This document shows, piece by piece, positions 16,482 through 62,059 of a stretch of 64,000 nucleotides of DNA. Made by a program: the position numbers and the translations under genes. Every line of letters begins with the position of its first letter. Within the stretch, counting starts at the first letter, position 1. The notes under the pieces are model-generated. The model made no database searches. It worked only from the letters and a program-made list of their open reading frames with translations, and was not told the origin of the DNA. Source of the DNA: a virus; IMG/VR virus record IMGVR_UViG_3300026484_000402, positions 16,341 through 80,340 of that record. One strand, written 5' to 3'.

Positions 16482-16749
16482 TTCATTGTTTATTATCGGT
16501 TGTGCACAAAAAAAAGTTGTATATATAAAAAACAAATGCCCGTCTTTTAGGTATGAACCAAGCATCCCTAAAAGTAAGACTTTTACTTTTTCAAGTAAAA
16601 ATGATAAAATTGTTTTATCAAAGCAGGATTTTAAAGAAATTTTAAAAAATTATTCTTTTATGAAAAATGAACTAAATCAAACAAAAAAATATATAAAAGA
16701 ATACAACAAAATGATACAAAGGATTAACAATGTCAGATATAGTAACTAA
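16453..16749 (+). CDS. Outer-membrane lipoprotein spanin (Rz1-like)
   Basis: MVKKLLLLFSSLFIIG-C lipobox from ATG 16453; Pro-containing segment; overlaps the i-spanin 3' end. Confidence 0.72.
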   Translation: MVKKLLLLFSSLFIIGCAQKKVVYIKNKCPSFRYEPSIPKSKTFTFSSKNDKIVLSKQDFKEILKNYSFMKNELNQTKKYIKEYNKMIQRINNVRYSN

Positions 16750-17290
16750 ATTGGAGAAAATAGCTGAAGAGCTTCCTAAAATAGAAGACGCTATTGGGGC
16801 TAAAAACACATTGGAAAAAATAGCTTTTGCAGTTAAAGCGCTAGAAATAATAGACAATGGTGGAATGAGTAAAGAAGCAGCAGTGTCTAGCAATTCATTA
16901 AGCCAAATAGGTGGGACTATGGCTAAAGCGTTAGTTGCGGGTCTAGGTATAGGACTTGCTGGAGAAGCATTAGATATTGGTCATCAAAAAGTAAAAAAGA
17001 TGTTTTTTGAGAGAAAATTGAATTCTTTAGCAAAAGCGGTAAAAAAGGAAGCCCCTGAACTTAAACATACAGATGATGCAAAAATAAAGAAAATGCTAGA
17101 GGCTGGATATGAATTGGCCCCTGAAGTAATGGAAAATCCAACTCTTGCTGCAAGTTTTGTAAGCATAGGAAATAGTTTAGGTGGAAAAGTTGACCCTAAT
17201 ACGATGAAAATTTTCGCAGACATACATTCAAAATTAAATGGGAGAGGAAAGTTTTCCGATAATTTAACATCAGGAATAGGACTTATATAA
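16730..17290 (+). CDS. Putative virion internal protein (K-x-A motifs, Gly-rich helix)
   Basis: LEKIA twice and SKEAA, then GGTMAKALVAGLGIGLAG. Confidence 0.55.
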   Translation: MSDIVTKLEKIAEELPKIEDAIGAKNTLEKIAFAVKALEIIDNGGMSKEAAVSSNSLSQIGGTMAKALVAGLGIGLAGEALDIGHQKVKKMFFERKLNSLAKAVKKEAPELKHTDDAKIKKMLEAGYELAPEVMENPTLAASFVSIGNSLGGKVDPNTMKIFADIHSKLNGRGKFSDNLTSGIGLI

Positions 17291-17299
17291 GGTGGTAAA

Positions 17300-17845
17300 A
17301 TGGGAGCTTATAAAATAAAACAAAAAACAAAAAAACCAAAATATAACATATTCAATATACCTAAAATTAAAACAAATATTGATTTAGCTAAATATGACCC
17401 TGTTACTGGAGAGAAAATAGCACTAGATTCCAATTTAAATAATTCCGAACAAAATGTAACCGGGAATGTTCCAAGTGCGTTATCTGGGAGAAAACAGGCT
17501 GATAAAAATGATTATTACAATTTAAGAAAAATGAAAATGGAAACTATGGCAGATGCTCTTCAAAGCAGAAAACAACCGGTGGATTTATTTGAAGCTGTAA
17601 AAAATGGAACAGTAGGAACTACTGCAGGGGTTGCGATAGGAAATATCTTGAATACTTCTAATAGAGCTAAAGGTTTGTTGGGTCTGGGACTTGGAGGCGC
17701 TATTGCTGCGATGGATGTTAATAGACAACTTAGAAAATATAATAATCAAATGGCTGCTAGAGAAGCTTTAATTGGACAGCCAACAGATAGGGAAAAAGCT
17801 TACATGAAATTATTGAGAGAAAAATATTCACAAGGTAAAAAATAA
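17300..17845 (+). CDS. Putative virion internal protein with glycine-zipper-like helices
   Basis: GEKIAL; GTVGTTAGVAIG; GLLGLGLGGAIAA. Confidence 0.5.
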   Translation: MGAYKIKQKTKKPKYNIFNIPKIKTNIDLAKYDPVTGEKIALDSNLNNSEQNVTGNVPSALSGRKQADKNDYYNLRKMKMETMADALQSRKQPVDLFEAVKNGTVGTTAGVAIGNILNTSNRAKGLLGLGLGGAIAAMDVNRQLRKYNNQMAAREALIGQPTDREKAYMKLLREKYSQGKK

Positions 17846-18369
17846 TGGATATTTTTAATTATTCAGACACAGATTATTCTGCGATTTTGTATAAAGATTT
17901 TTTTGTAATTTATATGAACTTAATAAAATCAAAACTTAGAGATAATAATATTGATGAAAAAATAGTTAGGCTCATAGATGCAGATACAATAAATGTTAAT
18001 AGAGCGCCTTTGATAATCCTTAAAAGAACACATAGTCCACAACCTCCTACAGGAGCATTATTAAATGAAAGGCTTAACACTATAAATAACAAAAATATAA
18101 TTAACAGTGTTTCATACCAAATGTTTAATTTGTTGATAACTTGCTATGGAAACACATATCTAGAATCTGAAAGACTTGCCAGTTTAGTAATAGAGTCAAT
18201 AATTCTTTCATCAATAAACAAAATTAGGGCTTTAAGTGAAAACAGAATTATAGGTCACGAATTTTTAAATTGGTCAGAAACAGGGTTAGTGTCACAAGAT
18301 ACTAAATTATTTGCAAGTTCTATAGAAATAAGAATAAGCACAATGTTTGAAACATCAACAGTGTTATAA
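17845..18369 (+). CDS. Possible tail completion/terminator protein
   Basis: 174 aa; PLIILKR and LLITCYG..YLESERLA pattern; structural gene context. Confidence 0.4.
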   Translation: MDIFNYSDTDYSAILYKDFFVIYMNLIKSKLRDNNIDEKIVRLIDADTINVNRAPLIILKRTHSPQPPTGALLNERLNTINNKNIINSVSYQMFNLLITCYGNTYLESERLASLVIESIILSSINKIRALSENRIIGHEFLNWSETGLVSQDTKLFASSIEIRISTMFETSTVL

Positions 18370-18384
18370 AAAAAAGGAAGTAAT

Positions 18385-19317
18385 ATGAATTTATACCCTT
18401 TGTTTTTAGGAAATGGAAATTCCTCAGCAGGACATGGTTCTTTTACTTTAGCTATTAAGGCCACTTGCGAAACAATCCAGAATACAAATAATACGTATAA
18501 ATTAAACGGAGAAGTAGCGAATTATGAATCTAATTCAAATCTAGAATTAAGTGGATTTATAGCTGAGGGGTTGCCATATTATGCTATGTGGATGCAAACG
18601 GTAGATAATTCAATTGCATTAAATTTCTCTCTTTTGTCTGAGGAATATGAGATAGCGATTTTGGACCAGGAAGTAAATATACAACAACCAGATGTAATAT
18701 TCACCTTTGAAGCCCTTCCCGCTTCTGTTAGTTTAAGTTGTATTTTGGAAGAAAAAGATTTCACTTCAACACTTTCTATAGGAGAAAACAAAATTATAGA
18801 AATTACCGAAAATGTTATAGAGTTAAATGAGAACAATGTTGTCTTTAACACTCAAGCAGGTAATATATACAGCACTCTTCTAGAGGAAACAATATATCCA
18901 ACAAATATTAATGCAGAAATATTAAACAACAATATTACCATACTTGGATATGTAAATGGTGAATTTGTAAGCATTAACACCAATATCGATAAGAATTATG
19001 TAATAGAAATTAAAAAAGGATGGAACAACATTATAGTGCCAACCATTATAGCAAACAATAAAGAAATGAGAATTTATGATTTTGTAAACATATTGGCTAA
19101 TTATATAGACAAAGAGCCTTATGAATTATTTGAAATCGCTTCATTCGTGGAAAATGATACTGAAAACAATTTTATTATTACAAAAGAATTTGTTTCAAAT
19201 GTTAATGGTCCAAATAATTTTAAACTATTTAAACAAATTAATAAAAAGATGTATCCTGTTCCATTCTTAATTAAATCTTTAGTTGATATTAATATTCCAT
19301 TAAAAGAAGTGTTATGA
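18385..19317 (+). CDS. Hypothetical beta-rich structural protein
   Basis: 310 aa; IEIKKGWNNIIVP. Confidence 0.55.
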   Translation: MNLYPLFLGNGNSSAGHGSFTLAIKATCETIQNTNNTYKLNGEVANYESNSNLELSGFIAEGLPYYAMWMQTVDNSIALNFSLLSEEYEIAILDQEVNIQQPDVIFTFEALPASVSLSCILEEKDFTSTLSIGENKIIEITENVIELNENNVVFNTQAGNIYSTLLEETIYPTNINAEILNNNITILGYVNGEFVSINTNIDKNYVIEIKKGWNNIIVPTIIANNKEMRIYDFVNILANYIDKEPYELFEIASFVENDTENNFIITKEFVSNVNGPNNFKLFKQINKKMYPVPFLIKSLVDINIPLKEVL

Positions 19318-19547
19318 CGTGTGTAAGAATTGATAACATTGGGGTTATACAAGAAATAACCAGATACATGAGAGAAAAAGTGTTTATTTGTAGAAAAAGA
19401 TATGTTTGTTTAAAAGCTAAAGATTTTGCTACAGAAAAAGTATATTTAAACGAATTAATGGATATTTTGAGAAATACGCCAATAAAAACAACTTTTGAAA
19501 TAATGTATAATTATATAAAAGATGAAGGAGAATGTAATGCTCACTAA
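19314..19547 (+). CDS. Hypothetical protein
   Basis: 77 aa, ATGA-coupled to the upstream gene. Confidence 0.55.
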   Translation: MTCVRIDNIGVIQEITRYMREKVFICRKRYVCLKAKDFATEKVYLNELMDILRNTPIKTTFEIMYNYIKDEGECNAH

Positions 19548-20838
19548 ATATATAGATGCACAAATTGAATACGCTGAAGCAGAAAAAGAAATATGTCCCA
19601 ATGGAATGTGCTCAATAGTAAAAACAGCTTCTGAAAGACCTGAGATTTTTAATGATATAAAAATTAAAAAAAATCACGCATATTTATATGTAATAGCTAT
19701 GGGAGCTGGAGATTTTTATGGCGAAAACAAAAATGGAGACTTTTTTTGGGAAAAAGATTTAAAACAATATTACACTAAATTTTTAACATCAGGAGTATTT
19801 GTTCAACACGACAATAAAGACCCATCAAAAAGTATTGGTAAGGTTTTAAAAGCTATTTATAACGATGAAATGCATAGAGTGGAACTACTTATAGAGATAA
19901 AAAAGGAATTAGCACCAGATATTTATTATTCTATTGAAAATGGAGAAAGAATAGCGGTTTCTATGGGAACCAAAGTTACCGAAGAACATTGCTCTTATTG
20001 TGGGCATGTCACAAAAGACAGTCTAGCAAACAGATGTGAGCATTTGAAATATATGATGCATCAAATAATGCCTAATGGTGTAAGAGTTTTTGCTATAAAC
20101 CATCCTCCTTTAAATTTCTTTGATATTTCTATAGTAAGAAGACCTGCTGATACTCAGGGGTATGCATTATTTCAAAAAGTAGCATCTGATAATAGTGAAA
20201 GGTTAATGCCCCAAAAAAAAGCTCTTTCTAAAATAGCAGAATTAAAAAAAAGAATAGATGCGTGGGCAGTATCAAATCCTCTCAACTATTCTGATATTAG
20301 AGAAATGAAACAAATACCTATGCCTATATTGAGTAATTTTATTAAAACAAATAATATTTTATTAAGACCATCTGAGATAATAGGTTTATTAAGCAATATA
20401 GATGAATATACATATTCTTCTCTAACCAAGTATGACACTTTAAAAACAATGATTAGATTATTGTCTTTATTGGAAGGGTGTGCACAACCACATATTGCTC
20501 CGGTTATTAAAATGGCCTCTGAAGACAGATATCCTGTTTTGAACAAATTAAAACATAGAGAAATATTAGTAAAAGAAGCTATGAATCAAATGGAATCGGA
20601 AAATATAGACGCTTTTGGAAATAAAAGAATAAAAATGAGAAAAAAACACAAAACCACTTCATATCCATATAATGAATATGCTGGAATAAGAATAAATTTA
20701 AACAATGGAGATAGTGTAACAGTTCAAGAACATATATTTGACGATGTTTTTGAAGCCTTCAAAGACAGTGGAGCAATTGATTCAGTATATGGAATATTGC
20801 CTAATGGAACTGAGAAAATAATATCTATCCAAAGGTAA
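19537..20838 (+). CDS. Prohead (capsid maturation) serine protease-like protein
   Basis: NKNGDFF, VQHD (His), VSMG (Ser), CSYCG/CEHL insert, FFDISIVRRPAD; start at 19537 from the AAGGAG RBS. Confidence 0.75.
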   Translation: MLTKYIDAQIEYAEAEKEICPNGMCSIVKTASERPEIFNDIKIKKNHAYLYVIAMGAGDFYGENKNGDFFWEKDLKQYYTKFLTSGVFVQHDNKDPSKSIGKVLKAIYNDEMHRVELLIEIKKELAPDIYYSIENGERIAVSMGTKVTEEHCSYCGHVTKDSLANRCEHLKYMMHQIMPNGVRVFAINHPPLNFFDISIVRRPADTQGYALFQKVASDNSERLMPQKKALSKIAELKKRIDAWAVSNPLNYSDIREMKQIPMPILSNFIKTNNILLRPSEIIGLLSNIDEYTYSSLTKYDTLKTMIRLLSLLEGCAQPHIAPVIKMASEDRYPVLNKLKHREILVKEAMNQMESENIDAFGNKRIKMRKKHKTTSYPYNEYAGIRINLNNGDSVTVQEHIFDDVFEAFKDSGAIDSVYGILPNGTEKIISIQR

Positions 20839-20841
20839 TTT

Positions 20842-22017
20842 GTGGGCAAAAAAATTGGTATTGGCAAAGTGGTAAATGTTTTTATTGATTCAACAAACAC
20901 AATAAAAGCAGATGTTAAATTAGATAGTGGTGGTTATATAAAAGCTGTATTAGGGTCTGAAAAAATAAATGAAGACGATATTGTATATGTTATGAAAGAT
21001 GATTTTGGCAGATATTATTTGACCCATAAAACATCATATAACCAAAGTTTGTTTACTTATTTGGAATCCCCTTTTTACACTACTGTTGCAGGAGATTTTA
21101 TTACAGGTGTTACCTTACTTGATATAGGAAATGATAGTTTTGTTATAAATTTTGATTTATTAAATTCGGGTTCTCTGGCTATTGGTTCAGATATTGCATA
21201 TATGGGGGTTGATTATGTTAATTATGTAGCTATAAAAAATGATACTAGTATTAGAAAGTTTGAAAGCGGCACATTGATAGAGGGTCCATTAATAAAAGGT
21301 TTTTCTTTTGATAAAAAGATTTCGTTTGAATTTTTAATAGGAAAAGTAAGAGATGATTTACTGCATCTAAAATCTATACAAGATATTGGAAAGATAATAG
21401 TTAAATCTACGAATTCTTTTGCTGAAATTATGGGCAAGTATGGAGCTCAACTAATATCTATATCTGAGGTATATAAAATAAAAGGCGTTGGTATAGGTTC
21501 TTATGTTGAATTAATTGCTATAGACCCTTCTTTTGCATCAGATTATTTAGATGATGTTAGAACAAATTTTTCCAAATTAACAGAAGAACTTAATGCACTA
21601 AAAATAAATCCTGATGTAATTATTGAATTTGATTTAGTTTTATCAAAAACTCCATACAATTCAAATATCTCAATTTCTTTTTTTGGTGAAATATATTATG
21701 TTACTTATTTTAAAGCAATAACTCTTGATGGAAATCGTATTGAAATATCAGCAAAACATATAAAATTAAATAATACAGATATTCTTAAAACAAATATTTC
21801 AGAAATGAAATTTAACAAGATTTTTGTAAACAATGCTTTTTATGTTAATGAAGGAGAAACCTCTCTAGCAATATTAAACCCAAAATTAACGTTATTACTA
21901 AGAGATGCCGTATTGTCTGTTGATAAATATGAAATCACTGCCACAGACTATATAGATATGCATGTAGGCGGCAAAGGATTCTATATAGATATATATGGTA
22001 CTAGCTCACATCACTGA
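20842..22017 (+). CDS. Baseplate spike/hub-like protein
   Basis: N-terminal OB-fold-like IGKVVNV..ADVKL; beta-repeat C-terminus ending in HH; GTG start. Confidence 0.45.
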   Translation: MGKKIGIGKVVNVFIDSTNTIKADVKLDSGGYIKAVLGSEKINEDDIVYVMKDDFGRYYLTHKTSYNQSLFTYLESPFYTTVAGDFITGVTLLDIGNDSFVINFDLLNSGSLAIGSDIAYMGVDYVNYVAIKNDTSIRKFESGTLIEGPLIKGFSFDKKISFEFLIGKVRDDLLHLKSIQDIGKIIVKSTNSFAEIMGKYGAQLISISEVYKIKGVGIGSYVELIAIDPSFASDYLDDVRTNFSKLTEELNALKINPDVIIEFDLVLSKTPYNSNISISFFGEIYYVTYFKAITLDGNRIEISAKHIKLNNTDILKTNISEMKFNKIFVNNAFYVNEGETSLAILNPKLTLLLRDAVLSVDKYEITATDYIDMHVGGKGFYIDIYGTSSHH

Positions 22018-22102
22018 TGATTCGTGTTTTTTTATAGTAATAATTTACTTTTTTCTATTTTTAAGTAAAATAATAATGAAAACTAAAATTAAAGGAGATA
22101 AT

Positions 22103-22753
22103 ATGAACGAAATTCAACAATTGTTACAGCTTGTTGCGCAACATTTTGGTTGGCAGGTTGGGGACAAGATAAAGACAGAAATAAACAGTATACTTGCCCT
22201 AGAAAATGTAGACATTAAGGAACTTCAAAACAGAATAAAAACCATTGAAAGTATTCTTGATGCCGACCCTGATACTGAGGAATTTGATGTAGCGCAAAAT
22301 ATTATCACTCAGCTTACTAATATTTTAACTAGACTTACAGATATTGAAAACAATATTTCAGATATTAGTTCAAGACTAGCTGATGTTGAATCACAAAATC
22401 AACAACAAAACAAAAGACTTGATGATATAGAATCACAATTATCCAATTTAACTTCAAATGATACAATTAATGGGATTCAGGAAGAAATTAGCAATATTGA
22501 AACAGAAATTGATAATATTGAAAACATAATAGACAGTAAAGCCGACAAAACATATGTTGATGAAAAATTTGTAACAAAAGAAAGTGTTACATCTATTAAT
22601 GTAGAAGCATTAGCAAATATATTTAGAGCAGCAATGGATTGTGGATTTAACGGAGTTAGTTTAAGCGATTGCAATACTAATAATTCAAACAATAACCCAC
22701 AAGATAATTCTGATAATGAAAATGGTGATACTGGGGACGGAGCAGTAATATAA
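22103..22753 (+). CDS. Long coiled-coil fibre-like virion protein
   Basis: Heptads RLTDIE/RLADVE/RLDDIE and KADKTYVD; start at 22103 from the AAGGAG RBS. Confidence 0.6.
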   Translation: MNEIQQLLQLVAQHFGWQVGDKIKTEINSILALENVDIKELQNRIKTIESILDADPDTEEFDVAQNIITQLTNILTRLTDIENNISDISSRLADVESQNQQQNKRLDDIESQLSNLTSNDTINGIQEEISNIETEIDNIENIIDSKADKTYVDEKFVTKESVTSINVEALANIFRAAMDCGFNGVSLSDCNTNNSNNNPQDNSDNENGDTGDGAVI

Positions 22754-23266: not shown

Positions 23267-23905
23267 ATGAGCTTTATAGAAAAAGTAGCTAGTTATTTTC
23301 AAACTTATGAAAATTCGTCAACTAAGGAAGGGTTGTTGAAAATAGCGGCTGAAGACGGGGTAACTGCCGATGACTTGGTTGCATTTCACAATTTAGTGTA
23401 CGGTAATATTTTTACCGGCAAGAATCTCTTAAAAACAGCAAGCGAAAATCCTGAAAGTAAAATTATTGCTATAGGCATGGCATTTGACAAAGTTGCAAGT
23501 GGTGAAATGACCCCAGAAGAGGTTGTTGCTTACGCAAATGAACTAGGTATGACGAAAGAAGATGTTGATTTTATTTATGCACAAATTGAAAAACAAGCAG
23601 AAGAAGCTGGAATTATTGAACCAGAGGCAAATGAGTACGATGAAGATTTAACTGATAAAGTTGCAGAAGCAATGGATTATCTTGACGCAAACGGCATTGA
23701 CCCTATAAGCGGGCTAATAATTGCTGCAAATGTTAATGAAGAAGGACTGATTGCTGACGAAAAAGTTGCTGAGGAAGCAGTTGAGGCTGGCTTTACAGAA
23801 GAGGACCTAACTAAAATTGCCGAAGTAGTTGATTTTCTAGGCGCTGTAGATGAAAAAGTTTTAGCTACTGCTGAAGCATTATTTGAAGCAGCGCATCAAG
23901 AATAA
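23267..23905 (+). CDS. Acidic scaffold/core-like protein with 8 K-x-A motifs
   Basis: EKVAS, LKIAA, LKTAS, DKVAS, EKQAE, DKVAE, EKVAE, TKIAE; Glu/Ala-rich. Confidence 0.55.
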   Translation: MSFIEKVASYFQTYENSSTKEGLLKIAAEDGVTADDLVAFHNLVYGNIFTGKNLLKTASENPESKIIAIGMAFDKVASGEMTPEEVVAYANELGMTKEDVDFIYAQIEKQAEEAGIIEPEANEYDEDLTDKVAEAMDYLDANGIDPISGLIIAANVNEEGLIADEKVAEEAVEAGFTEEDLTKIAEVVDFLGAVDEKVLATAEALFEAAHQE

Positions 23906-23985: not shown

Positions 23986-24948
23986 ATGTATCCAATAGAA
24001 GAATTAGCAAATCAAATAGTTAATTCAGACGATGTTGCTGCAGAATTTGCAAAAATCGCAAGCAATATGGATGAAAGGTGGAAAGTTACTTTAGCTAGAG
24101 AGGTAAATAAACAGAATTTTATTAAAAAACTTCAAGAATCAGACTTAAATTCAGATATAAGATTTGATGTAGTAGAAACCCCTGAAATGTCTAAACTAGC
24201 TTCTGAAAAAGAAAAAAGTAGACCCCAAAATCTTACTAAAACAGCTTCTGTTAACAAACAGGCGAACATAGAAAAAAAAGCACAAATATTGCCTTCAATG
24301 TTTGTTATAAAACAAAATGAAAATATTTATAGAGAAAAAATTTCCTCAGGATACACATATAAAGAAACTTTAACAAAAGAAGCAAAAGAGGCAATTAATG
24401 ATGAATTAGCATATGAATTAAAGGATAAAATAGCAAAAGAAGAAAATGAAAAAAATAGATTATTATTTGAAGCAGAGGTGGCAAAAGAAATACTGCTTGA
24501 TAAAATAGCTTCTTTAACAGATATGGAGTCTGAAATGAGAGATATTATAAAAACTCTAGTAAAATCTAATATGGAAAAATATGCTGAAGATGTTTTAATG
24601 AGAAGCAATGTGAGAACAGATATGTTATCAAAAGTAGCAAGCGAAAATCTTGATATTGAGAAAAAAGCCAAATTAGACGATGCTATAAATAAACTTGCTC
24701 AGATTGACGAATTAATGGAAAAAAAAGCTATTGGTCCTCTGGCTAGAGTTGTGACAACTGTATTAGGTAAAGGGCTAAATTTAATTGGGACTGGTGCTGC
24801 ATATGGAGCAAGAGGAGCTGCAATAGCAGCAAAGGGATTTGCTAGAACAGCTATTAAACACCCTATTGCCACTACTGCTGTAGTAGCCGGCTCTAATGTA
24901 TCAGATAAATCTACTAATCAAATAAGAAATGTAGTGCTAGGATATTGA
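23986..24948 (+). CDS. Putative processed head protein with about 13 K-x-A motifs and a Gly/Ala-rich C-terminus
   Basis: AKIAS, SKLAS, TKTAS, DKIAS, SKVAS, EKKA three times; C-terminal GTGAAYGARGAAIAAKG. Confidence 0.55.
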   Translation: MYPIEELANQIVNSDDVAAEFAKIASNMDERWKVTLAREVNKQNFIKKLQESDLNSDIRFDVVETPEMSKLASEKEKSRPQNLTKTASVNKQANIEKKAQILPSMFVIKQNENIYREKISSGYTYKETLTKEAKEAINDELAYELKDKIAKEENEKNRLLFEAEVAKEILLDKIASLTDMESEMRDIIKTLVKSNMEKYAEDVLMRSNVRTDMLSKVASENLDIEKKAKLDDAINKLAQIDELMEKKAIGPLARVVTTVLGKGLNLIGTGAAYGARGAAIAAKGFARTAIKHPIATTAVVAGSNVSDKSTNQIRNVVLGY

Positions 24949-35145: not shown

Positions 35146-36111
35146 TTACATCCTTGTAGCTACATCTTTATATGATTCCATTTTGTTGCGGTTATGATAT
35201 CTATCATATAATACTCCTCCCGTCAAACCAACACCTATTGTATCATATATCATATTACTTTTGTGTTTGTCTATTTCTTTTGTTAATTTTTTATAATCGG
35301 GATGACTTTCAGCTAATTCACCATAATCTTTTTTAAGCTGCTCTAAATTTTTCATAGCACCTCTATACCTTTGAAAACTGGTTATAATTGGAACATATGA
35401 AGCTCTTTTTTGTATCATATTAGGAATATTAGCAACATCATCAATATATGGAGTATATTTTAAAGCAGGATTCATTGTATTCTTTTCATTTGTTTCTTTT
35501 TGTTGTTTTTTCTTATGTAAATAATATGAAATTGCAGGAATAGCAGACAATCCCAGACCAATCAGGTTACTTCCTTTTAAAAATCTGCTAAATTTACTCA
35601 TTTTTATAGTAGGGTTAAAAGCTTTAAATCCCTCCCCTATTTCTTTAACACCTCTTTTTAGATGTTCGGCAGGATTAAAGGCATGTTTTAGATTTTTAAA
35701 TAATTCAGCCTTATGTTTAGAATTAATAATTTTTTTACCGGCATCCATTCCATGCATCATAGCCCCAAACGAATATACACTTCCTGCAGCAGCTGGAGCA
35801 TATATCATTCCTGCATGTAGCAAACTTGGTTTATCATCTTCTCTCATATATTTTTCTCTTAAAGCTTGTGATGCCTCATTCCCTGCATAAGAAGCTGCAG
35901 CTCCAGTTATACCTCCTGCAAATCCTCCAGCAAGCCCCCCTCCTATATTTTTAGCTATCCCCTTTATTTTACTTGTGTTTTTGTCTATTTTATCAAAAGC
36001 ACTCATAGTGCCAGTAAGGGCGGTATTAATTAGTGTGTCATTTTTTATTTGCTCATATGGATTTTTTTTATTTATTTGTTGTACATTATTATATTGTTGT
36101 ATCTCTGACAT
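35146..36111 (-). CDS. Putative virion internal protein with glycine-zipper helices
   Basis: GGGLAGGFAGGITGAAA; IGLGLSAIPA; QKRAS motif before the last domain. Confidence 0.5.
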   Translation of the reverse strand: MSEIQQYNNVQQINKKNPYEQIKNDTLINTALTGTMSAFDKIDKNTSKIKGIAKNIGGGLAGGFAGGITGAAASYAGNEASQALREKYMREDDKPSLLHAGMIYAPAAAGSVYSFGAMMHGMDAGKKIINSKHKAELFKNLKHAFNPAEHLKRGVKEIGEGFKAFNPTIKMSKFSRFLKGSNLIGLGLSAIPAISYYLHKKKQQKETNEKNTMNPALKYTPYIDDVANIPNMIQKRASYVPIITSFQRYRGAMKNLEQLKKDYGELAESHPDYKKLTKEIDKHKSNMIYDTIGVGLTGGVLYDRYHNRNKMESYKDVATRM

Positions 36112-44300: not shown

Positions 44301-44878
44301 TTTAATGTTAAAAACATATAATCTATAGATTCATCTTTATGATAAAAAACATCTTTAAAAGCTTTTACATTTAAGATTGAATTGTCCTCAAACTTAACAT
44401 ATGATACAGTTCCCGAAGTTACCGTTAATGTTTCAGTGGCTTTTGATAAAGTATTTATTTTTTCTTGTTGTATTATTTCTCTAACACTTAAAGCATTAGT
44501 GTTAAAACTATTTTTCTCTTGAATTTTATCCCAGGTTTTACTTTTTTTTAGAAAATTAACTTCAAGAAAATCGTAAAAATCTGAATATTTCTTAATAGAA
44601 TCATCCTCTGAAACCAAATTATTACATTTGATTTTAAAAACATCAGATTGCAATTCATATTCAACTCCCAGCAAGTCACCAGATATTTGTTTTAAATACC
44701 CATCTATATTGTTAGTAAATACTTTATTCAAAGTCACTCCTAATAAATTATTTTTTATATTGTTTTCATTTGTTAGCAATGTAAAAATTTTATCATATTG
44801 ATTAACGGCATCAGAAAGAGCTAATTTTAGCTCATCTAGAGTATAATTGCCGCTTAAAAGTAATTCAACGTTAGTCAT
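41384..44878 (-). CDS. Large virion structural protein (1164 aa)
   Basis: Acidic Thr-rich beta-sandwich-like central inserts; structural cluster context. Confidence 0.55.
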   Translation of the reverse strand: MTNVELLLSGNYTLDELKLALSDAVNQYDKIFTLLTNENNIKNNLLGVTLNKVFTNNIDGYLKQISGDLLGVEYELQSDVFKIKCNNLVSEDDSIKKYSDFYDFLEVNFLKKSKTWDKIQEKNSFNTNALSVREIIQQEKINTLSKATETLTVTSGTVSYVKFEDNSILNVKAFKDVFYHKDESIDYMFLTLNNLDGLFLDNSTFKEIKLNLTDSEITGSGCKISNFTETQAAQDAQNAIVEIYVKYLLPEQTNTLDVNGTAYSYTPTTDDTPDIVADTLGSNITEGIDGVSYATEAGYYSAAPIDDDNEVKLAWYYPTTETGLTINVSLTEDNSSEHDLEVNWDEENYTLEVVYASDGSDTIFPTIGEILDAVNNSSSPIKVELVNSSYTVDDDYPYEMDFTLEQTDSKLILTSEKTDLTVTGAPTDLFNISKIQSYADGKHQSGSIEVVKFRRGYVYYIKVDDTQYTIDTTNENNPDVNNEVALASKFVELINAGTLGTATNSSNKILLTLKDYTEHTISTSGEQDYVEPVSRNALVKYDVRNYAFQGTNLKLYKPQNSINTLNSPISLKESEDIMNTGIIFTSNAISDVRLKFDKENYKYYSKDDDDISTLYESVDEIINLTLINKNLLLQKKLEYISIYDSVIDADFYFQNASIVEKYGIFTAPKNQFIPSIQLKYFDEISLDDVQKTFLGMSDTHYSTMQNTFSNYMQEENIYTLHDLLTKQNINNIGPYVFKETDLKEVFKPYYGMLNVKEFNFKTYGKITLNDLSKKPELIKLFKNDTLLDNNNNEIQIDEYVLKHALMDLFLAQNAPNMLEQITVLLEVFFFDLNDVIIHLYSDTFRDVVLELDTPESAPAMDYGLDGTPEEAVVSFSTLYIRQYKTEINKTLDLDLNKITTQEYKNMSINEKALTLRILPAAIKATLKYDSGSKEVVLPLATSKHKIIETISIYDDMLLIDVVRNGYFATLGGFLSNRCTSGVSLKYKDTVWNALIKTFFIKDKDNIIGVQDSVSQIKILYDRFNGVDPWDFAALLGPTNNIYSSESALINLFIRIYESIKRNNIASSDYQDYFNGCIGTIFMNDDTATDILPYELFHMFLCSIGVMNDITEGDVLDIDLSKYDFEANIEQALGKNCNVTLNGTDLKLIYNDKNNLVLTNYIKET

Positions 44879-46613
44879 TAATATTACCTTCGAGTTGACT
44901 CAATCTGTTTTCAATTTCCTCAAATTTTACCTTATTGTTCTGATTTTGCGTTTTGAACTTATCTGCTAAGACAGTTAATGCATCTGAGATTGATTTAATA
45001 GCTTCTACATGCTTATTCATAGATTCAGCAACTTTAGTTTGCAATACAGCTGTATCTATATCTCTGTAAATTATTTCTTCAGGTAATAGCGACGTATCAA
45101 GCTCATCAGTAATTTCTGCTTCTAATAATTCGAAACTTGAAGCCCCTTTAATGTAAATTGCTAATTTACCAGTTTCAAAAGAAGGCTCTTCCACTGAGAG
45201 CATTTTTGTTTTTATTTCGATAAAATTTCCATTTATACTTTTAAACAATCTTAGACTTTTACCAAATGGAGTAAATGAAATTACAAGTTTATAAATATTA
45301 TTGTCAAAAGACAAGAATTCCTCAGGAATTACTGAAAATCCATCTACTAGAAAACTATTTTTAGGTTGTGCTTTAAAATTATAAGCGAGGTCTGCTCCAT
45401 TAGGATGTTTTACAATACAATACCCTTTAATATTGTTTGCCAAGACTTCAAACATAGTATCCTTTTCAGTCGATTCAACAATTACTGGTGTTTGTTCGCC
45501 AAGAGAATTTACCCCATAAACCACATCTGAAGTAACATTGTATGTTTGCACTCCAAATACTACATTAAAAATATCGTTTCTCGCCAATTCTGGATATTTT
45601 GCAAAAGATTGTTTATTGTTTACACTTTCTTGATAAGTTACTATATCCAAGGAAATGCCGCTATGTTTATTATCTCTATCTACAAAAAGATAATTTCCAT
45701 TTTCATCAACAAATGACCATACAGGATATTTTAATGAAAGCTCAATCTCTTCTTCATTGTAAATTTTAACCACCCCATTTAAAGAAACAATATAATATTT
45801 TCCATTGGCAAGTTGCGCATCTTGCACTTCATTTTCAGTATTAACTGTACCATCAATAAAGTTGAAAAAATACAAATTATTGTCAATATCTATTAATGTT
45901 AATGAATTTTTAAACGCTTTGATTGTTTTGTATGTTAGTGTGGTATCAACAGCAGAATAATCTCCATCTCCCCAAATTGAAATTTTGCCGTTTGCTTTTT
46001 TAATTATTATAAAATCGCTTCCTGCAAATATTTTTACCGGAGCATCTGTTGAACTATCATAATCATTTACAGTATCGGGAACTGATACATTATTACCAGC
46101 GCTTTTACCGTTTACAATTACTATGTTTTTATTTTCATCAGTGTTTTTATAGATATATGCAATAAACCCGTCTCCGGTTGCAACATCTATTACATTATCA
46201 GGCTGATTATCAATTTGCCCATTACTATTGTCACCATAAACATAAACATTACCGTTAATTAACGCTACTTTATTAGTCGAACTCCCATCTAGTTTTAAAT
46301 TTTGGAAATCAATTTCATTAAAAGCGGTTTTTTCTTCTCCATCAACAATTAATTTTTTCTCACTGTTAATATAGATTTTTTCATCTCCATCAAACCAATA
46401 CGGTGCAGGTAATTCTGTTTCAACATAAGGGTCAGCTTTAAATAAAAAAACAACGCTTTTGTTTACAGATAAATCAAATGTATCATTTGAAACAATTCCT
46501 GTGTTATAGTCTTGATTTTTTACATTATTTAAATAGATTCCGCCATTTTCTGTTAATACAGCAGTAGCTCCTACTACAGAGAAATCACTATTGGTTAATT
46601 TTTGGGTCGCCAT
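44871..46613 (-). CDS. Tail fibre-like protein with RCC1/BLIP-II-like propeller repeats and a C-terminal coiled coil
   Basis: GNVYVYGDNSNGQ, IDVATGDGF, KIFAGSDF..NGKISIWG; IENRLSQLE. Confidence 0.65.
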   Translation of the reverse strand: MATQKLTNSDFSVVGATAVLTENGGIYLNNVKNQDYNTGIVSNDTFDLSVNKSVVFLFKADPYVETELPAPYWFDGDEKIYINSEKKLIVDGEEKTAFNEIDFQNLKLDGSSTNKVALINGNVYVYGDNSNGQIDNQPDNVIDVATGDGFIAYIYKNTDENKNIVIVNGKSAGNNVSVPDTVNDYDSSTDAPVKIFAGSDFIIIKKANGKISIWGDGDYSAVDTTLTYKTIKAFKNSLTLIDIDNNLYFFNFIDGTVNTENEVQDAQLANGKYYIVSLNGVVKIYNEEEIELSLKYPVWSFVDENGNYLFVDRDNKHSGISLDIVTYQESVNNKQSFAKYPELARNDIFNVVFGVQTYNVTSDVVYGVNSLGEQTPVIVESTEKDTMFEVLANNIKGYCIVKHPNGADLAYNFKAQPKNSFLVDGFSVIPEEFLSFDNNIYKLVISFTPFGKSLRLFKSINGNFIEIKTKMLSVEEPSFETGKLAIYIKGASSFELLEAEITDELDTSLLPEEIIYRDIDTAVLQTKVAESMNKHVEAIKSISDALTVLADKFKTQNQNNKVKFEEIENRLSQLEGNIND

Positions 46614-46625
46614 ATTTTTTCCTTA

Positions 46626-46955
46626 TTATTTATTTTTCCCAATCGCCTCTATAACTTTATTGGCTATTTTATCACCTAGCACATCTGCTATTTTTACTAA
46701 ATTTGCAATATCTGTATTTCCAGCTTCTTCAGCTACTTTTATTAAACCGTCAAGGGAATTAACTTTGTCTATTTCTGTAGCTATTTTTTCAATTGATTGA
46801 CTTACTTTATTTACAGTTTCAATTTCAAGATTTAAATCATCAAGTTCAACTGCTTTCTTTTCTGATGCTTCTTTTTGTAGGTTTACATCAGGTTTAGTCT
46901 CTTCTGATTTTACTTCTTCTTTTATGTTTTGGATAAATTCTTGAAAAGAATGCAT
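46626..46955 (-). CDS. Small acidic scaffold-like protein with 6 K-x-A motifs
   Basis: QKEAS, EKKAV, EKIAT, IKVAE, VKIAD, DKIAN in 109 aa. Confidence 0.55.
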   Translation of the reverse strand: MHSFQEFIQNIKEEVKSEETKPDVNLQKEASEKKAVELDDLNLEIETVNKVSQSIEKIATEIDKVNSLDGLIKVAEEAGNTDIANLVKIADVLGDKIANKVIEAIGKNK

Positions 46956-58703: not shown

Positions 58704-58710
58704 AATGCTC

Positions 58711-58788
58711 TCACATATCAGGCCAACCGTAAGGTGGCCATTCTATTTTCTCTACCGGTTTTAATCCGCCGTCACCATTTAAAATCAT
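58711..58788 (-). CDS. Candidate 25 aa peptide (not in ORF track)
   Basis: MILNGDGGLKPVEKIEWPPYGWPDM; AAGGA RBS; fills the intergenic gap. Confidence 0.5.
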   Translation of the reverse strand: MILNGDGGLKPVEKIEWPPYGWPDM

Positions 58789-58800
58789 ATCATATCCTTT

Positions 58801-59073
58801 TTACAGTGGTTTAATTACATCTTTAATCGCATCTATATATAAGTCCACTTCTTGTGCGAACTGAGGATTTTTTTTCTCTTCACGCACTTCCCTTATAGCT
58901 TTATTTAACACCTTTACTGAAAGTCCAGCATCTTTCACGTTTTTTACAATCTCTTTTCTTTCACCTTTTAAAGCATCTATTCTTTCATCTATTAATTGAA
59001 TTTGATTTGCTGCTTGAGATAATATTTCTTTTGCTTCTGATTCAGAGATTACTTTTTGAGTTTTTTTTGCCAT
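58801..59073 (-). CDS. GapR/DUF2312-family DNA-binding protein
   Basis: IDERIDALKGERKEIVKNVKDAGLSVKVLNKAIR..VDLYIDAI. Confidence 0.78.
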   Translation of the reverse strand: MAKKTQKVISESEAKEILSQAANQIQLIDERIDALKGERKEIVKNVKDAGLSVKVLNKAIREVREEKKNPQFAQEVDLYIDAIKDVIKPL

Positions 59074-59083
59074 TTTTACTCCT

Positions 59084-59383
59084 TTAACAATGTGTTTGTA
59101 TTAATTTATCGGCTTTTCGTAATACATCTTGGTAACCGTGTTGTGCCGCTCTTATTTTTGCAGCTTTTAACATTTTGCAACTTATTTTACCTGTATTTGG
59201 ATTTATAATAGGAAATTTTTTTTCTGCAGGAAGAAGAAAAGCGTTTGGACCATGCTTTCTCAACAAATGTTCTCTTACACTTGTTTTATGTATTTTTTCT
59301 TTGAGTATCTGCCCAAATTTCAAGGATTTAGGGCTTCTTGGGTCTTGAAACGCTATTCTTTTTACCGCTATTTTATACAGCAT
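59084..59383 (-). CDS. Small basic protein with an MLYKIA leader
   Basis: 99 aa; AFLLPAEKKFPI..CKMLKAAKIRAAQHG. Confidence 0.65.
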   Translation of the reverse strand: MLYKIAVKRIAFQDPRSPKSLKFGQILKEKIHKTSVREHLLRKHGPNAFLLPAEKKFPIINPNTGKISCKMLKAAKIRAAQHGYQDVLRKADKLIQTHC

Positions 59384-59434
59384 ATTTTCCTCTTTTTTTG
59401 ATAATTATATCATTTCTACATATAAATAGCAAAA
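59366..59434 (-). repeat. Promoter-RBS-leader direct repeat, copy A
   Basis: TTTTGCTATTTATATGTAGAAATGATATAATTATCAAAAAAAGAGGAAAATATGCTGTATAAAATAGC. Confidence 0.75.
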
Positions 59435-59451
59435 TCTAACTTTTTCTTTGA

Positions 59452-59655
59452 TTATAATAATTGACTACCAGCTATCCCGCCTATAACACCTGCTATACCA
59501 CTTTCTAATAATGTTGTTTTTGTTCCTCTAAGAGCTAATTTATGTGCTCCGGCAGTAGCTACTCCTGATGCGATACCTTTAAATAATTTAGATTTAAAAA
59601 ATGAATTCTGATTCTTGTTTTTTTGTATTTTCTTTGCTGCTATCTTATACAACAT
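59452..59655 (-). CDS. Small Gly-rich basic protein with an MLYKIA leader (67 aa)
   Basis: Start moved to MLYKIAAK at 59655 (AAGGA RBS); GIAGVIGGIAG. Confidence 0.65.
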   Translation of the reverse strand: MLYKIAAKKIQKNKNQNSFFKSKLFKGIASGVATAGAHKLALRGTKTTLLESGIAGVIGGIAGSQLL

Positions 59656-59705
59656 CTTTTTCCTTTTTTTAATAATTATATCGTCTTTATATATAAATAA
59701 CAAAA
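59638..59705 (-). repeat. Promoter-RBS-leader direct repeat, copy B
   Basis: TTTTGTTATTTATATATAAAGACGATATAATTATTAAAAAAAGGAAAAAAGATGTTGTATAAGATAGC. Confidence 0.75.
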
Positions 59706-59710
59706 CCTAA

Positions 59711-59745
59711 GGAAAATAACCACATTTCATGGTATGTATATATAA
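59711..59745 (+). promoter_or_regulatory. Candidate phage-specific promoter, copy 2
   Basis: GGAAAA-TAACCACA-TTTCATGGTA-TG-TATATAT-AA. Confidence 0.6.
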
Positions 59746-59806
59746 AAGAGAGATTTTGGGCTTACTCTCTATAATAAAAAAGCCGATACCAATTAAAAGG
59801 ATTATC

Positions 59807-59956
59807 ATGAAAAACATATTAGTTACAGCTGGGACAGTGTATGTAAGCACTAAGGAAAACTTAAGAAGGTTGCAAAAAAAAATAGGGGGAGTTATAAACC
59901 CCCCAAAATGGGTATGTGACCCATTTAAGGAGGGATGGAAAATAGTTACCGTTTAA
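59807..59956 (+). CDS. Small hypothetical protein (49 aa)
   Basis: AAGGA RBS before MKNILVTAG; followed by GGAGGGAT..ATCCCTCC plus a T-tract (terminator-like). Confidence 0.6.
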   Translation: MKNILVTAGTVYVSTKENLRRLQKKIGGVINPPKWVCDPFKEGWKIVTV

Positions 59957-60014
59957 TCCCTCCTCTTTTTTTAGTTACTATTTTCTAATTTTAACAATTA
60001 ATTTTTTTTGAAAA

Positions 60015-60032
60015 CACGGTATATATAAATGG
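60015..60032 (+). promoter_or_regulatory. Candidate phage-specific promoter, copy 3 (core only)
   Basis: CACGGTA-TA-TATAAAT-GG followed by a GCAGG/CCTGC hairpin. Confidence 0.5.
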
Positions 60033-60071
60033 AGCAGGCCATAATCCTGCAAAAAAATCAAAAGGAGAGAA

Positions 60072-60890
60072 ATGAAAACAACAAAAATTCTAAAATACGG
60101 AAAAAAAATCGCAGGTGAAACGAGAAAGGCTGATTTCTTGAGAGCTTTCGGAAGAGAAGTGGAAGTTACGAGAATAATAAGCTTCGGAGCATGTAACTTC
60201 CATTGCCCATATTGCAAAAGAGATTGTCAACTTGTAGACGGAAAGGGCAATCCAATTCGTGCTGAAGAGGTAAATTTCTCTGATATCCTAGCGGTAGTGG
60301 ATGATGCTATTGCAAAAGGTCAGAGGGTGAGGCTATCTGGCGGGGACCCAGTGATGTTCCCAAAAGAAAGTTTGGAGATTGCTAAATATACAATGGAAAA
60401 ATACGGGCAAAAAATATCTATAGCCCATAACGGTTCAGGTATGAGATTTGTAAAATCTCTTGCCCCTTACCTGGACTATGCGGCAATTGACTTAAAGGGG
60501 CATGATGGAAAAGAACTTGCCATGAGAGCGGGAATTCCTGAAAAAGTAGGAGATAAGATGCTAAAAAGCACTCTTGCAGTACAGGATTATCTCGCTTCTC
60601 AGGACATATTGGTAGATGTAAGAACGCCTGTGTTCGACACTACGACCCTAGACCATTTATATGCAATGGCAGAACAAATTGTCAAGGGCGGGGTAAAAAA
60701 CAAATTCTGGACTCTTAGAAAATACAACCCGGTCCGCTGGATTGACTGGGGAACAATTCCTCAGGAAACGCTGTTACAATACGCAGAAATAATCTCTAAA
60801 GAGTTTCCGGAACTCCCTATAGGTCTTCGCCTAAAATGGAGCGGGGGGTCAAAAGAATTTATAATATTGAAAGGAGGTAAAAGAATTTAA
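60072..60890 (+). CDS. Radical SAM protein (glycyl-radical activase / NrdG-like fold)
   Basis: GACNFHCPYC CX3CX2C motif, RLSGGDP, YAAIDLKG, VRTP. Confidence 0.88.
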   Translation: MKTTKILKYGKKIAGETRKADFLRAFGREVEVTRIISFGACNFHCPYCKRDCQLVDGKGNPIRAEEVNFSDILAVVDDAIAKGQRVRLSGGDPVMFPKESLEIAKYTMEKYGQKISIAHNGSGMRFVKSLAPYLDYAAIDLKGHDGKELAMRAGIPEKVGDKMLKSTLAVQDYLASQDILVDVRTPVFDTTTLDHLYAMAEQIVKGGVKNKFWTLRKYNPVRWIDWGTIPQETLLQYAEIISKEFPELPIGLRLKWSGGSKEFIILKGGKRI

Positions 60891-60951
60891 TCCCCCCCCC
60901 CTTTTTTGTCTTATTTTTTGTATAATAAAATCTGAAATTAAAGGAGTAAAA

Positions 60952-61125
60952 ATGAAAAAAAAAGTAAAAAATCTTTTTGATATTGTAATGGTTGTTCTTA
61001 TGTTTCCATTTGTTTTGATGGGGATAATGGTGGCATATACTTTTGCTACTATTGAATATGTTGTTGAACTTGTTTTTAAAGAAAGGAAAACAAATGATTT
61101 ACAAAATAGCAAGTCAAAAGATTGA
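60952..61125 (+). CDS. Small membrane protein, 57 aa (not in ORF track)
   Basis: AAGGAG RBS; MKKKVKNLFDIVMVVLMFPFVLMGIMVAYTFATIEYVVELVFKERKTNDLQNSKSKD; TATAAT upstream at 60921. Confidence 0.65.
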   Translation: MKKKVKNLFDIVMVVLMFPFVLMGIMVAYTFATIEYVVELVFKERKTNDLQNSKSKD

Positions 61126-62059
61126 AAAAAAAGCCATACTAGGTGAAGCAGCCATCGCTCTTGGCGCTCACCTTGCTCAAAATCAGGTTGTAAGAGGAAC
61201 TGCAGCAAAAGGAAGACTTGGAGAGCATTTAGCCTTAAGATTTTCTCCTAATTTATCTAGAAGACAAGCCGTTGTTAATGGAGGGGTAAATGCCATCTCT
61301 CCGGAAGTTCCTATTATAGAAAATGAGATTAGAGAATTTCTAGAAAAAGCAGACCTTAAGAATATGTCTCTTAGACAAAAAGCCGCTCTTAATTTTTTTG
61401 CTAAAGGTGACTGGCTAAAATTAAGAAAGAGAAATTTATTAGAACACATACATCCTAAATATGGAAAACTTCTGCAAGAACTGCCTGATGAGTCTGTAAA
61501 GAGGCTTCAAGAAACTTATAAAAGTGGCCCTCTAGGGCAAATATCATCAGATATGGTGAACTATTTAAAAAAGAATAAAGATGCAAGAAGAAATTTTTCA
61601 CTTGAGAAAAAACATAAAAAACTCGAACTTACTTCCGAAATAGCTAATAATGCAGCACTAGGAACAATTGACCCTGTTATTCCATTGTTTAATGGTGTTA
61701 AAAGATTTGGAGCATCCAAACTAGGAAATAACAATAAATTTATAGGAGAAACAAGAAAACAATTAAGAGACACTATGGTTGAACATCCAGCATATAAAGA
61801 CATGGATAAAGGTTTGAGGGGCGAGGCTTTATCAAGAAGAGAAAAAAATTACGCATATAATGTAGTAAATCCAATAACTGGACATCTAAGAGAATTAAGT
61901 AATGTGCTAGGTCAGGAAGTGGCGCAACACAAGCCTGAATATGTCCCTTTGATAAGGCAAACAGCGAAAGATGCAGATTCAAGGGTAGCCGGTCCTATTA
62001 GAAGAAAATTATCTCTCTTAAAAGAAAAAATGCCTTCTATAAGAAAGAAAAGAACTTAA
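61094..62059 (+). CDS. Basic putative virion internal protein with an MIYKIA leader
   Basis: Start moved to 61094 (AAGGA RBS): MIYKIASQKIEKKAILGEAAIALG. Confidence 0.7.
   Translation: MIYKIASQKIEKKAILGEAAIALGAHLAQNQVVRGTAAKGRLGEHLALRFSPNLSRRQAVVNGGVNAISPEVPIIENEIREFLEKADLKNMSLRQKAALNFFAKGDWLKLRKRNLLEHIHPKYGKLLQELPDESVKRLQETYKSGPLGQISSDMVNYLKKNKDARRNFSLEKKHKKLELTSEIANNAALGTIDPVIPLFNGVKRFGASKLGNNNKFIGETRKQLRDTMVEHPAYKDMDKGLRGEALSRREKNYAYNVVNPITGHLRELSNVLGQEVAQHKPEYVPLIRQTAKDADSRVAGPIRRKLSLLKEKMPSIRKKRT

Follow-up and report, generated by a model that had tools for sequence, protein, structure and literature searches.

The subject of this study is a 64,000-nucleotide stretch of virus DNA (hereafter, the window; bases 16341-80340 of the 80.3-kb contig IMGVR_UViG_3300026484_000402, with a GC content of 29% and a completeness rated at ~43%), which contains the gene of a prohead, i.e., capsid maturation, protease (19522-20838, plus strand) and genes of several small proteins in which, as in the protease itself, the pattern Lys-x-Ala (K-x-A) is repeated. 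An original prediction, made from the sequence alone, had proposed K-x-A as a cleavage code of this protease. We found that the pattern is over-represented in a few proteins, that it flanks the catalytic domain of the protease across a large family, and that the full motif is longer, [L/I/M/F]-x-K-[V/T/I/L]-A-[S/A/E]. Coordinates are those of the window unless a position on the contig, upstream of the window, is given. A complete relative (G001, IMGVR_UViG_3300028534_000013; 176,653 bp), whose protease is 89% identical to the product of 19522-20838, was analyzed as well, together with 34 loci around distant protease homologues that were taken from IMG/VR and scanned as 20-kb neighborhoods.

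The protease gene encodes 438 amino acids (aa) as listed, and homologues of its product begin at the ATG at 19537. The assignment is based on a match to PHROG 18299, "head maturation protease" (E 1.1e-10), on the fold of an AlphaFold (AF2) model and on the invariant residues H96 and S147. The model, built on 22 homologues, has a mean predicted local distance difference test score (pLDDT) of 72.7, and its residues 46-221 are well predicted (pLDDT 74-90). This range, the one aligned in the fold searches, corresponds to a catalytic domain of the gp21/assemblin fold (19657-20184, plus strand). It matches T4 gp21 (5jbl_B) with a Z of 10.8 and a root-mean-square deviation of 2.8 A over 129 residues, and eight herpesvirus proteases match it at Z 6-8.8, whereas unrelated folds (MCE/MlaD) stay at Z <=5.4. 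H96, S147 (the Ser of VSMG) and H174, candidate catalytic residues, are invariant in the 22 homologues and follow one another in the sequence in the order His...Ser...His. By sequence, the product had no match in Pfam and, with hmmsearch, none in the Protein Data Bank (PDB), and hhalign of the protease family to T4 gp21 retrieved nothing.

The family is very large, with 3113 clusters at 50% identity that match at E<=1e-3, 1966 of them at E<=1e-10. In Salmonella phage Arash, Vibrio phage D181, Bacillus (Lysinibacillus) phage G and most relatives in IMG/VR, the protease gene lies between portal-side genes and the capsid gene; in the lineage of the window, the portal gene (contig 5049-6800) and the capsid gene (125332-126309 in G001) are further away from it. 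The catalytic domain also contains an invariant cluster of Cys and His residues, C157-x-x-C160...C172-x-H174 (19984-20049, residues 155-176; 22 homologues), that is shared with Arash gp222 and phage G gp19. The cluster resembles a zinc knuckle placed within a protease of the gp21 fold; H174 may, instead, be a third catalytic residue. We know of no such cluster in T4 gp21. Several homologues (P0043, P0046-P0049) are 600-630 aa long and match the intein/homing-endonuclease domains PF14890, PF14528 and PF05204, so that, judging by these domains, inteins are present inside the prohead protease gene of some phages.

Within the protease, the K-x-A sites are found where autocleavage might be expected. 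The peptide VKTAS (residues 33-37) precedes the catalytic domain and QKVAS (218-222) stands at its end, as had been predicted, and SKIAE, IKMAS and VKEAM are present as well. The first site, K34-T-A36 (19621-19629, plus strand), is a candidate N-terminal autoprocessing site located just before the domain; K34 and A36 are invariant in the 22 homologues, which have 39-89% identity, the site recurs family-wide, and it falls in a low-confidence segment of the model (residues 11-37). The second, K219-V-A221 (in FQKVAS; 20176-20184, plus strand), is a candidate "release" site that coincides exactly with the domain end: K219 and A221 are invariant, and in the model the site closes the last strand, after which residues 222-233 are disordered. 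Three further sites of the same strand lie in the C-terminal extension, namely, K237-I-A239 (20230-20238), with K237 invariant and A239 at least 90% conserved; K330-M-A332 (20509-20517), with both residues conserved to at least 90% within a stretch that varies elsewhere and is modeled as coil (319-337); and K351-E-A353 (20572-20580), again with both residues at least 90% conserved. Outside the catalytic core, 10 of the 12 motif Lys and Ala residues are at least 85% conserved, versus 3 of the 31 other Lys and Ala residues (Fisher p 8e-6).

The positions at the domain borders hold far beyond these homologues. Of the 150 best representatives of the 3113 clusters, 141 have a K-x-A no more than 14 aa past the end of the catalytic domain, and 143 of 148 have one in the 30 aa that precede it. 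In the alignment, K-x-A occupies the post-domain position in 120 of 142 representatives, with Leu at -2 in 89, Lys in 122, Val at +1 in 83, Ala in 124 and Ser at +3 in 77 (54%), numbering from the Lys. The 18 exceptions at the Ala position include 10 Ser and 4 Gly, and the Lys is replaced by Arg in 3 of 142; this substitution pattern fits a small S1 pocket that would accommodate the Ala. Arash gp222 (LEKVAN) and phage G gp19 (LEKVAS) have the same post-domain site and both flanking sites, and phage-G-like metagenomic proteases keep K-x-A at both borders. Short homologues were also considered as natural "mature" forms of the protease; none ends exactly at K-x-A, and they look like fragments.

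The counts of K-x-A in each protein were compared to a null model of composition-preserving shuffles (20,000 per protein), with a correction for 86 proteins. The excess is concentrated in three main carriers that stay significant after the correction: 23267-23905 (8 observed versus 1.9 expected, p<5e-5), 23986-24948 (14 versus 4.2, p<5e-5) and 46626-46955 (6 versus 1.2, p=1e-4). The protease has 6 versus 2.5 (p=0.03). All counts and peptides that the original prediction had quoted are present in the sequence (the 14 copies in 23986-24948 had been given as about 13); some of the carriers that it listed are weakly supported. Specifically, K-x-A is not individually significant in 16730 (4 versus 2.7) and 17300 (2 versus 2.3), some of whose sites are nevertheless conserved (see below), and there is no enrichment in 35146 (2 versus 3.6), 59084, 59452 and 61094 (5 versus 3.2 in the last), each taken alone. 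Regionally, we scored all 1600 gapped dipeptides with gaps of 0-3 residues, an unbiased scan in which K-x-A ranks first in the head block at 16.7-26 kb (38 versus 18.8, z 4.4); in the rest of the 80-kb contig, K-x-A is without enrichment (124 versus 110 expected).

The same scan was applied to T4 gp67, gp68, gp21 and gp22 as a control of the method. In these proteins, IxE ranks first (15 versus 5.8) and LxE second (16 versus 6.9), and KxA is at rank 15 and not significant. The established motif of T4 gp21 is (I/L)-x-E, with the cut after Glu (PMC12991175). The scan thus recovers the proven T4 code, and a gapped dipeptide that is enriched in the core proteins of a prohead can validly be taken as the mark of a protease code. 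The motif excess in the window is not due to chance or composition.

The tripeptide is a real signal, although too short a description of it: a hydrophobic residue at -2 and Ser, Ala or Glu after the Ala belong to the motif. For the pattern [LIMFV]-x-K-x-A, the excess becomes much larger, with 12 observed versus 1.1 expected in 23986, 6 versus 0.5 in 23267, 5 versus 0.7 in the protease, 4 versus 0.4 in 46626 and 4 versus 0.8 in 16730, and two genes upstream of the window are also rich in it (contig 7742-10234, 8 versus 1.3; contig 4001-4987, 5 versus 1.3). A logo of 357 sites from 18 loci has information confined to positions -2 to +4, with Leu, Ile, Met or Phe at -2, Glu or Val at -1, Val, Thr, Ile or Leu at +1, Ser (31%), Ala or Glu at +3 and Glu (18%) at +4. 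Such compact information is as for the subsite footprint of a protease. The motif residues form conserved islands within otherwise variable leaders, and the K-x-A sites of non-enriched proteins have a faint version of the same flanking residues. The product of 44871-46613 (580 aa), with RCC1-like repeats (PF13540, E 4e-7), has 7 K-x-A versus 2.4 expected and is probably not a substrate because a single one of them has a hydrophobic residue at -2.

Known cleavage codes were tested in seven carriers. The Glu-ending codes of T4 and phiKZ are not enriched ([LI].E, 30 versus 36.3 expected; [SAG].E, 46 versus 48.2), and neither is the herpes-like [VLI].A (40 versus 50.3). The pattern K.AS occurs 18 times versus 1.2 expected, and K-x-A-x-E 19 times versus 2.2. 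That the candidate code differs from the Glu-ending motifs of T4 and phiKZ, as the original prediction supposed, is well supported by the sequences of the carriers and by the family-wide K-x-A at the borders of the protease domain.

The carriers are diverse. The product of 23267-23905 (plus strand) is an acidic protein of 212 aa with a net charge of ~-35, and six of its eight K-x-A have a hydrophobic residue at -2; it is a candidate for a core or scaffold-like protein that would be degraded to peptides. A paralogue is encoded upstream of the window (contig 4001-4987), and the two proteins contain repeated KVAE...G...E units. The product of 23986-24948 (plus strand; 320 aa, 14 K-x-A) consists of a leader, residues 1-248, and a basic Gly/Ala-rich C-terminal piece of 72 aa (24730-24945). 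In its homologues (33-90% identity), there is no variation at sites 23, 70, 85 and 216, at K246 or at A175, which is the Ala of site 173, and, over the family, 15 of the 28 motif Lys and Ala residues are conserved, versus 8 of the 45 others (p 0.002). In a model of this protein, sites 25, 175, 218 and 248 are at the C-terminal ends of helices or in coil, 85-87 is in a disordered stretch, and six non-conserved sites are inside long helices (shallow alignment, pLDDT 62). The product of 46626-46955 (minus strand) has six K-x-A in 109 aa; four homologues of ~31-40% identity retain three of these sites (about residues 28-35, 57 and 73), and the last two are not conserved.

Two genes in front of the protease were not enriched in the shuffle test and have conserved sites. 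The product of 16730-17290 (plus strand; 186 aa) has three conserved K-x-A in its first 50 residues, followed by a Gly-rich hydrophobic segment: LEKIA (residue 10), LEKIA (30) and SKEA (48) are kept in four loci (L002, L004, L006, L007), the fourth site is not, and the most hydrophobic 19-aa stretch begins at residue 60. The product of 17300-17845 (plus strand; 181 aa) has one conserved K-x-A out of two (GEKIA, residues 37-41; three homologues) before its Gly-rich C-terminal part. The latter protein has a weak likeness to the P22 ejection protein gp7 (PF25688, E 1.2e-4, below the Pfam cut-off), which fits the idea that Gly-rich products are ejected. In 23986, 16730 and the gene at contig 4001-4987, a basic, Gly/Ala-rich, moderately hydrophobic segment follows the last conserved site. 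The proposed flip of charge between leader and cargo is seen in 23986 (-7/+7) and 16730 (-3/+4), and not in 17300, 35146 and 61094; in the paralogue at contig 4001-4987, the charge changes from -34 to +23 across the switch from leader to C-terminal part.

The other proposed carriers are less certain. The 321-aa Gly-rich product of 35146-36111 (minus strand) has IQKRAS at residues 233-238, its membership is doubtful, and no homologues of it were present among the fetched loci. The gene 59084-59383 (minus strand) starts with M-L-Y-K-I-A (59366-59383), a candidate tag or cut site for which the evidence is weak. The same six residues (59638-59655, minus strand) are found at an internal ATG, the probable true start, of a second gene, which is listed as 59452-59703; this ATG, at 59655, would replace the listed TTG start, which is probably too far upstream. 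Both genes are preceded by 48-nt repeats (59392-59439 and 59663-59710, 85% identical) that are located 8-9 nt upstream of the starts of 59084-59383 and 59452-59655, and their products diverge after M-L-Y-K-I-A. A third gene, 61094-62059 (plus strand), begins with M-I-Y-K-I-A (61094-61111), followed by IEKKA. No homologues were found for 59084, 59452 and 61094. In total, seven proteins of the contig begin with M-x(0-6)-hydrophobic-x-K-x-A, which has a p of only ~0.05-0.08 against the overall rate of the motif.

The excess of K-x-A recurs in relatives. It is the first of all gapped dipeptides in 12 of the neighborhoods (L009, L010, L015, L016, L018-L024 and L031) and the second or third in L011-L013, and the excess in these loci sits in the protease and in small proteins nearby. 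In the three cultured phages, K-x-A is at rank 1 (Vibrio phage D181), rank 2 (phage G) and rank 5 (Arash). No K-x-A excess is seen in the neighborhoods of the most distant protease homologues (L025-L030, L032-L036), although the phage-G-like proteases among these retain K-x-A at both domain borders; in L025-L030, L029, L034 and L036 other gapped pairs lead (DxL, LxD, ExI, MxR), a hint that there may be other codes in those clades. Arash gp220 is built like 23986, with ten sites, M-N-K-E-A and then a basic Gly/Ala-rich tail, and gp220, gp222, gp223 and gp225 of Arash have been detected in virions (PMC10585845, Table 2). Throughout the G001 genome, the extended motif occurs 119 times versus 78 expected and is concentrated in ~10 of the 232 open reading frames (ORFs). 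These are the homologues of the window carriers and a 328-aa protein near the capsid gene (11 versus 0.6, p 7e-11), and they adjoin the portal, protease and capsid genes.

The major capsid protein also has a site near its N-terminus, F-V-K-E-A at residues 29-33 in G001 and L-V-K-E-A at residues 25-29 in Arash, in the aligned position. K-x-A is present there in 13 of 15 capsid proteins of the clade, and the phage-G-like ones have G-R-[A/V]-A. A cut near the capsid C-terminus was considered as well, since the phage G chain in the PDB ends two residues early, after K-I-S, and Arash ends with K-V-A-L-A; this candidate was dropped because the aligned C-termini show a conserved [GA]-[IV]-[AG]-K-[IV]-x-[LI] strand and not K-x-A. 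The portal (contig 5049-6800, upstream of the window; locus L003) is 26% identical to Arash gp204 (E 8e-59), is related to phage G gp14 and contains L-D-K-M-A-S at residues 55-60. At about the same distance from the N-terminus, the phage G portal has R-K-M-A-S and the Arash portal has R-K-L-S-S.

Other genes of the phage include a split beta-prime RNA polymerase subunit (14108-15847), a GroEL-like protein and a primase; the GroEL-like chaperonin gene (1604-3028; phrog_5725, E 3e-45) adjoins the primase gene. For most proteins of the window, including the carriers and most of their neighbors, searches of PHROGs and Pfam returned no family. The last 4 kb of the window have a GC content of 42%, versus ~29% elsewhere. 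In this part, a region of ~1.4 kb with few ORFs (62100-63500), in which no Rfam family reached the gathering threshold, is followed by four tRNA genes at 63521-63997 (Ser-GCT, Ser-TGA, Gln-TTG and Tyr-GTA).

Taken together, these results suggest that the K-x-A-type motif is probably the processing code of a gp21/assemblin-fold prohead protease and that it represents a new specificity. If so, the protease would be incorporated into the procapsid as a precursor. Upon activation, it would free its own catalytic domain by cuts at K34-T-A36 and K219-V-A221 and would next cut its C-terminal extension at the three further conserved sites. The acidic leaders of the core proteins (23267, 23986, 46626, 16730, 17300 and others in the genome) would be chopped into short peptides that leave the shell, and the basic Gly/Ala-rich pieces would be released and retained inside as internal or ejected proteins, so that some carriers may have scaffold roles and others may be ejected. 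The major capsid protein of the complete relative, with the same signal ~30 residues in, may be processed likewise.

Which bond would be cut is suggested by the substitution pattern. Given that the motif is cut at all, Ala is likely to be P1, and the most likely cut is right after it, with a hydrophobic P5, Lys as P3, Ala as P1 and Ser as P1'. This is because the Ala is substituted by small residues, Arg rarely replaces the Lys, and Ser follows. The protease of HK97 cuts after Lys, and a cut at another bond of the motif by the protease of the window, either after the Lys, as in HK97, or as A-x-E| with an upstream Lys, according to the rule of phiKZ and SPN3US, has to be weighed against this assignment. 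In the logo, Glu is enriched at +4, the carriers have the excess of K-x-A-x-E given above, and the N-terminal site of the protease reads K-T-A-x-E/D in most homologues; SPN3US, too, prefers V-A-x-E|S (PMC10052503). However, the Glu at +4 is found in less than one fifth of the sites and is not conserved at the post-domain site, and [SAG]-x-E and [LI]-x-E are not enriched, so that this Glu is too rare to be P1. With Lys as P1, Arg would be expected often, as opposed to the 3 of 142 that were found, and the invariant Ala at P2' would be unusual. We therefore consider both versions of a cut at another bond unlikely.

Equally unlikely, in our estimate, although a serious alternative, is that K-x-A is a docking or capsid-targeting motif that is bound and left uncut, i.e., an amphipathic helical patch that tethers cargo, core proteins and the protease to the shell, to the portal or to each other. 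The spacing of positions -2, +1 and +2 (i, i+3, i+4) is that of one face of an alpha-helix, several sites are modeled in helices, including protease sites 237 and 351, the seven proteins that open with the motif resemble proteins with an address tag, and the capsid site could belong to the N-arm. Yet docking does not account for the presence of K-x-A on either side of the catalytic domain in 94-97% of the family, or for up to 14 copies, 6-47 aa apart, in one small protein. Moreover, most of the best-conserved sites of 23986 lie in linkers or where helices end, not inside the helices, the beta-branched Val, Thr or Ile at +1 and the Ser after the Ala suit an extended substrate better than a helix, and motif enrichment of this kind marks real cut sites in T4.

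That the motif is read by another enzyme, such as a second phage protease, a host protease or a modifying enzyme, is very unlikely, given that the enrichment follows the gene of this protease from host to host and through very different genomes (phages of Salmonella, Vibrio and Lysinibacillus and low-GC uncultured phages) and that, family-wide, the motif flanks the catalytic domain of the gp21-like protease itself. An excess without function, due to composition, internal duplications (as the KVAE...G...E repeats of 23267 and its paralogue and the faint flanks in non-enriched proteins might suggest) or the periodicity of Lys/Ala/Glu-rich coiled coils, is scarcely credible given that composition-preserving shuffles reject it, that the coiled-coil protein 21995-22753 has zero K-x-A, and that the motif is conserved in unrelated families and in 18 diverse loci, with no information beyond -2 to +4.

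Several observations weigh against K-x-A as a processing code. Conservation extends to only about half of the K-x-A instances in the carriers; among those that lack it are KKA at protease residue 232 and 6 of the 14 sites of 23986. The conserved protease sites 237 and 351 are modeled inside helices. A similar logo would be expected for a helical docking motif, since -2, +1 and +2 share one face of an alpha-helix. The homology to gp21 is based on the fold and the PHROG profile, with no link at the level of sequence. It should be noted that K-x-A content was the criterion by which carriers were chosen, both for the logo and when known motifs were tested. Finally, the deposited capsid chain of phage G starts at residue 1, which, together with the G-R-x-A of phage-G-like capsid proteins, indicates that the capsid site may be structural.

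We also envisage a broader possibility, doubtful at present, in which hydrophobic-x-K-x-A is both an address label and a cut site. The motif would dock in the substrate cleft of the still-inactive protease, which would thereby bring cargo and core proteins into the procapsid and let them go once it becomes active. The Ala|Ser bond would be shared with herpesviruses, specificity for a small P1 would be ancestral in proteases of the gp21/assemblin fold, and T4 and phiKZ would have acquired their Glu specificity later. Under this combined reading, a six-residue N-terminal tag (M-L-Y-K-I-A, spread with a promoter cassette) would suffice to load any protein into the head.

To our knowledge, phage prohead proteases of the gp21/assemblin fold are known only as enzymes that cut after glutamate. 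A Lys-x-Ala rule, if true, would be a second specificity class in a very large family, which includes cultured phages (phage G, Arash and Vibrio oyster phages) whose head maturation is undescribed. Such a rule would allow the mature termini of dozens of "hypothetical" head proteins to be predicted from sequence alone, would separate discarded leaders from retained, perhaps injected, cargo, would offer a small tag for loading foreign proteins into capsids, and would connect phage proteases with the Ala|Ser code of herpesvirus assemblins. Sensors of the cyclic-oligonucleotide-based antiphage signaling system (CBASS) are reported to be switched on by a prohead-protease cut in a motif-bearing bait loop (PMC12991175), and a new code would indicate where to seek the matching baits. 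A literature search that included full text, and did not cover the phage G capsid paper, found no description of a K-x-A motif of prohead proteases; no protease is mentioned in the Arash paper (PMC10585845), and cleavage is addressed neither in the phage G tail paper nor in a review of jumbo phages.

The closest structural counterpart of the enzyme is T4 gp21 (MEROPS S77; 5jbl), which has the same fold (Z 10.8) and processes gp22, gp67, gp68, IPI-III, gp23 and gp24. The logic proposed here is alike, with a protease that is built into the prohead core and processes itself, numerous cuts in small acidic core proteins and the liberation of internal proteins, and in both phages a motif, the cleavage motif in T4 and the candidate motif here, is statistically enriched in core proteins. 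Unlike T4, the phage of the window has a hydrophobic-x-K-x-A signal, a C-terminal extension of 217 aa, an invariant Cys/His insertion and no detectable sequence similarity to gp21. T4 also has a capsid targeting sequence (CTS), a short N-terminal peptide of otherwise unrelated proteins that ends in the protease motif. M-[L/I]-Y-K-I-A similarly heads three genes here, two of which share a duplicated upstream cassette; the T4 CTS has ~10 residues, and the candidate tag has 6.

In the phiKZ/SPN3US group (gp175 and gp245, respectively; MEROPS S80), many head proteins are processed, mainly by removal of N-terminal propeptides with several motifs, and the enzyme cuts itself; these phages and the phage of the window all have multisubunit RNA polymerase genes. 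SPN3US gp245 prefers Ser at P1' and Val at P4 in V-A-x-E|S (PMC10052503). Whereas these proteases cut after the Glu of (S/A/G)-x-E or A-x-E, here a Glu follows two positions after the Ala in only 18% of the sites.

T4 gp21 and phiKZ gp175 had been named as the precedents in the original prediction. The closest substrate code is that of the herpesvirus assemblins, which cut after Ala. The assemblins (MEROPS S21; pUL26 of pseudorabies virus, PrV, and UL80a of human cytomegalovirus, HCMV) have the same fold (Z 6-8.8). Their release (R) and maturation (M) sites are cut after Ala, usually before Ser or Thr, as in YLQA-T (R) and VQA-S (M) of PrV (PMC4498786). There are also differences: P3 is hydrophobic in herpesviruses, without a requirement for Lys, whereas Lys would be P3 here, and the herpesvirus enzymes use few sites, as opposed to the dozens of candidate sites in this phage. 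The herpesvirus release site ends the catalytic domain before the fused C-terminal region, and the candidate release site of the phage protease, FQKVA|S (residues 217-222), corresponds to it both in position and in the Ala-Ser pair.

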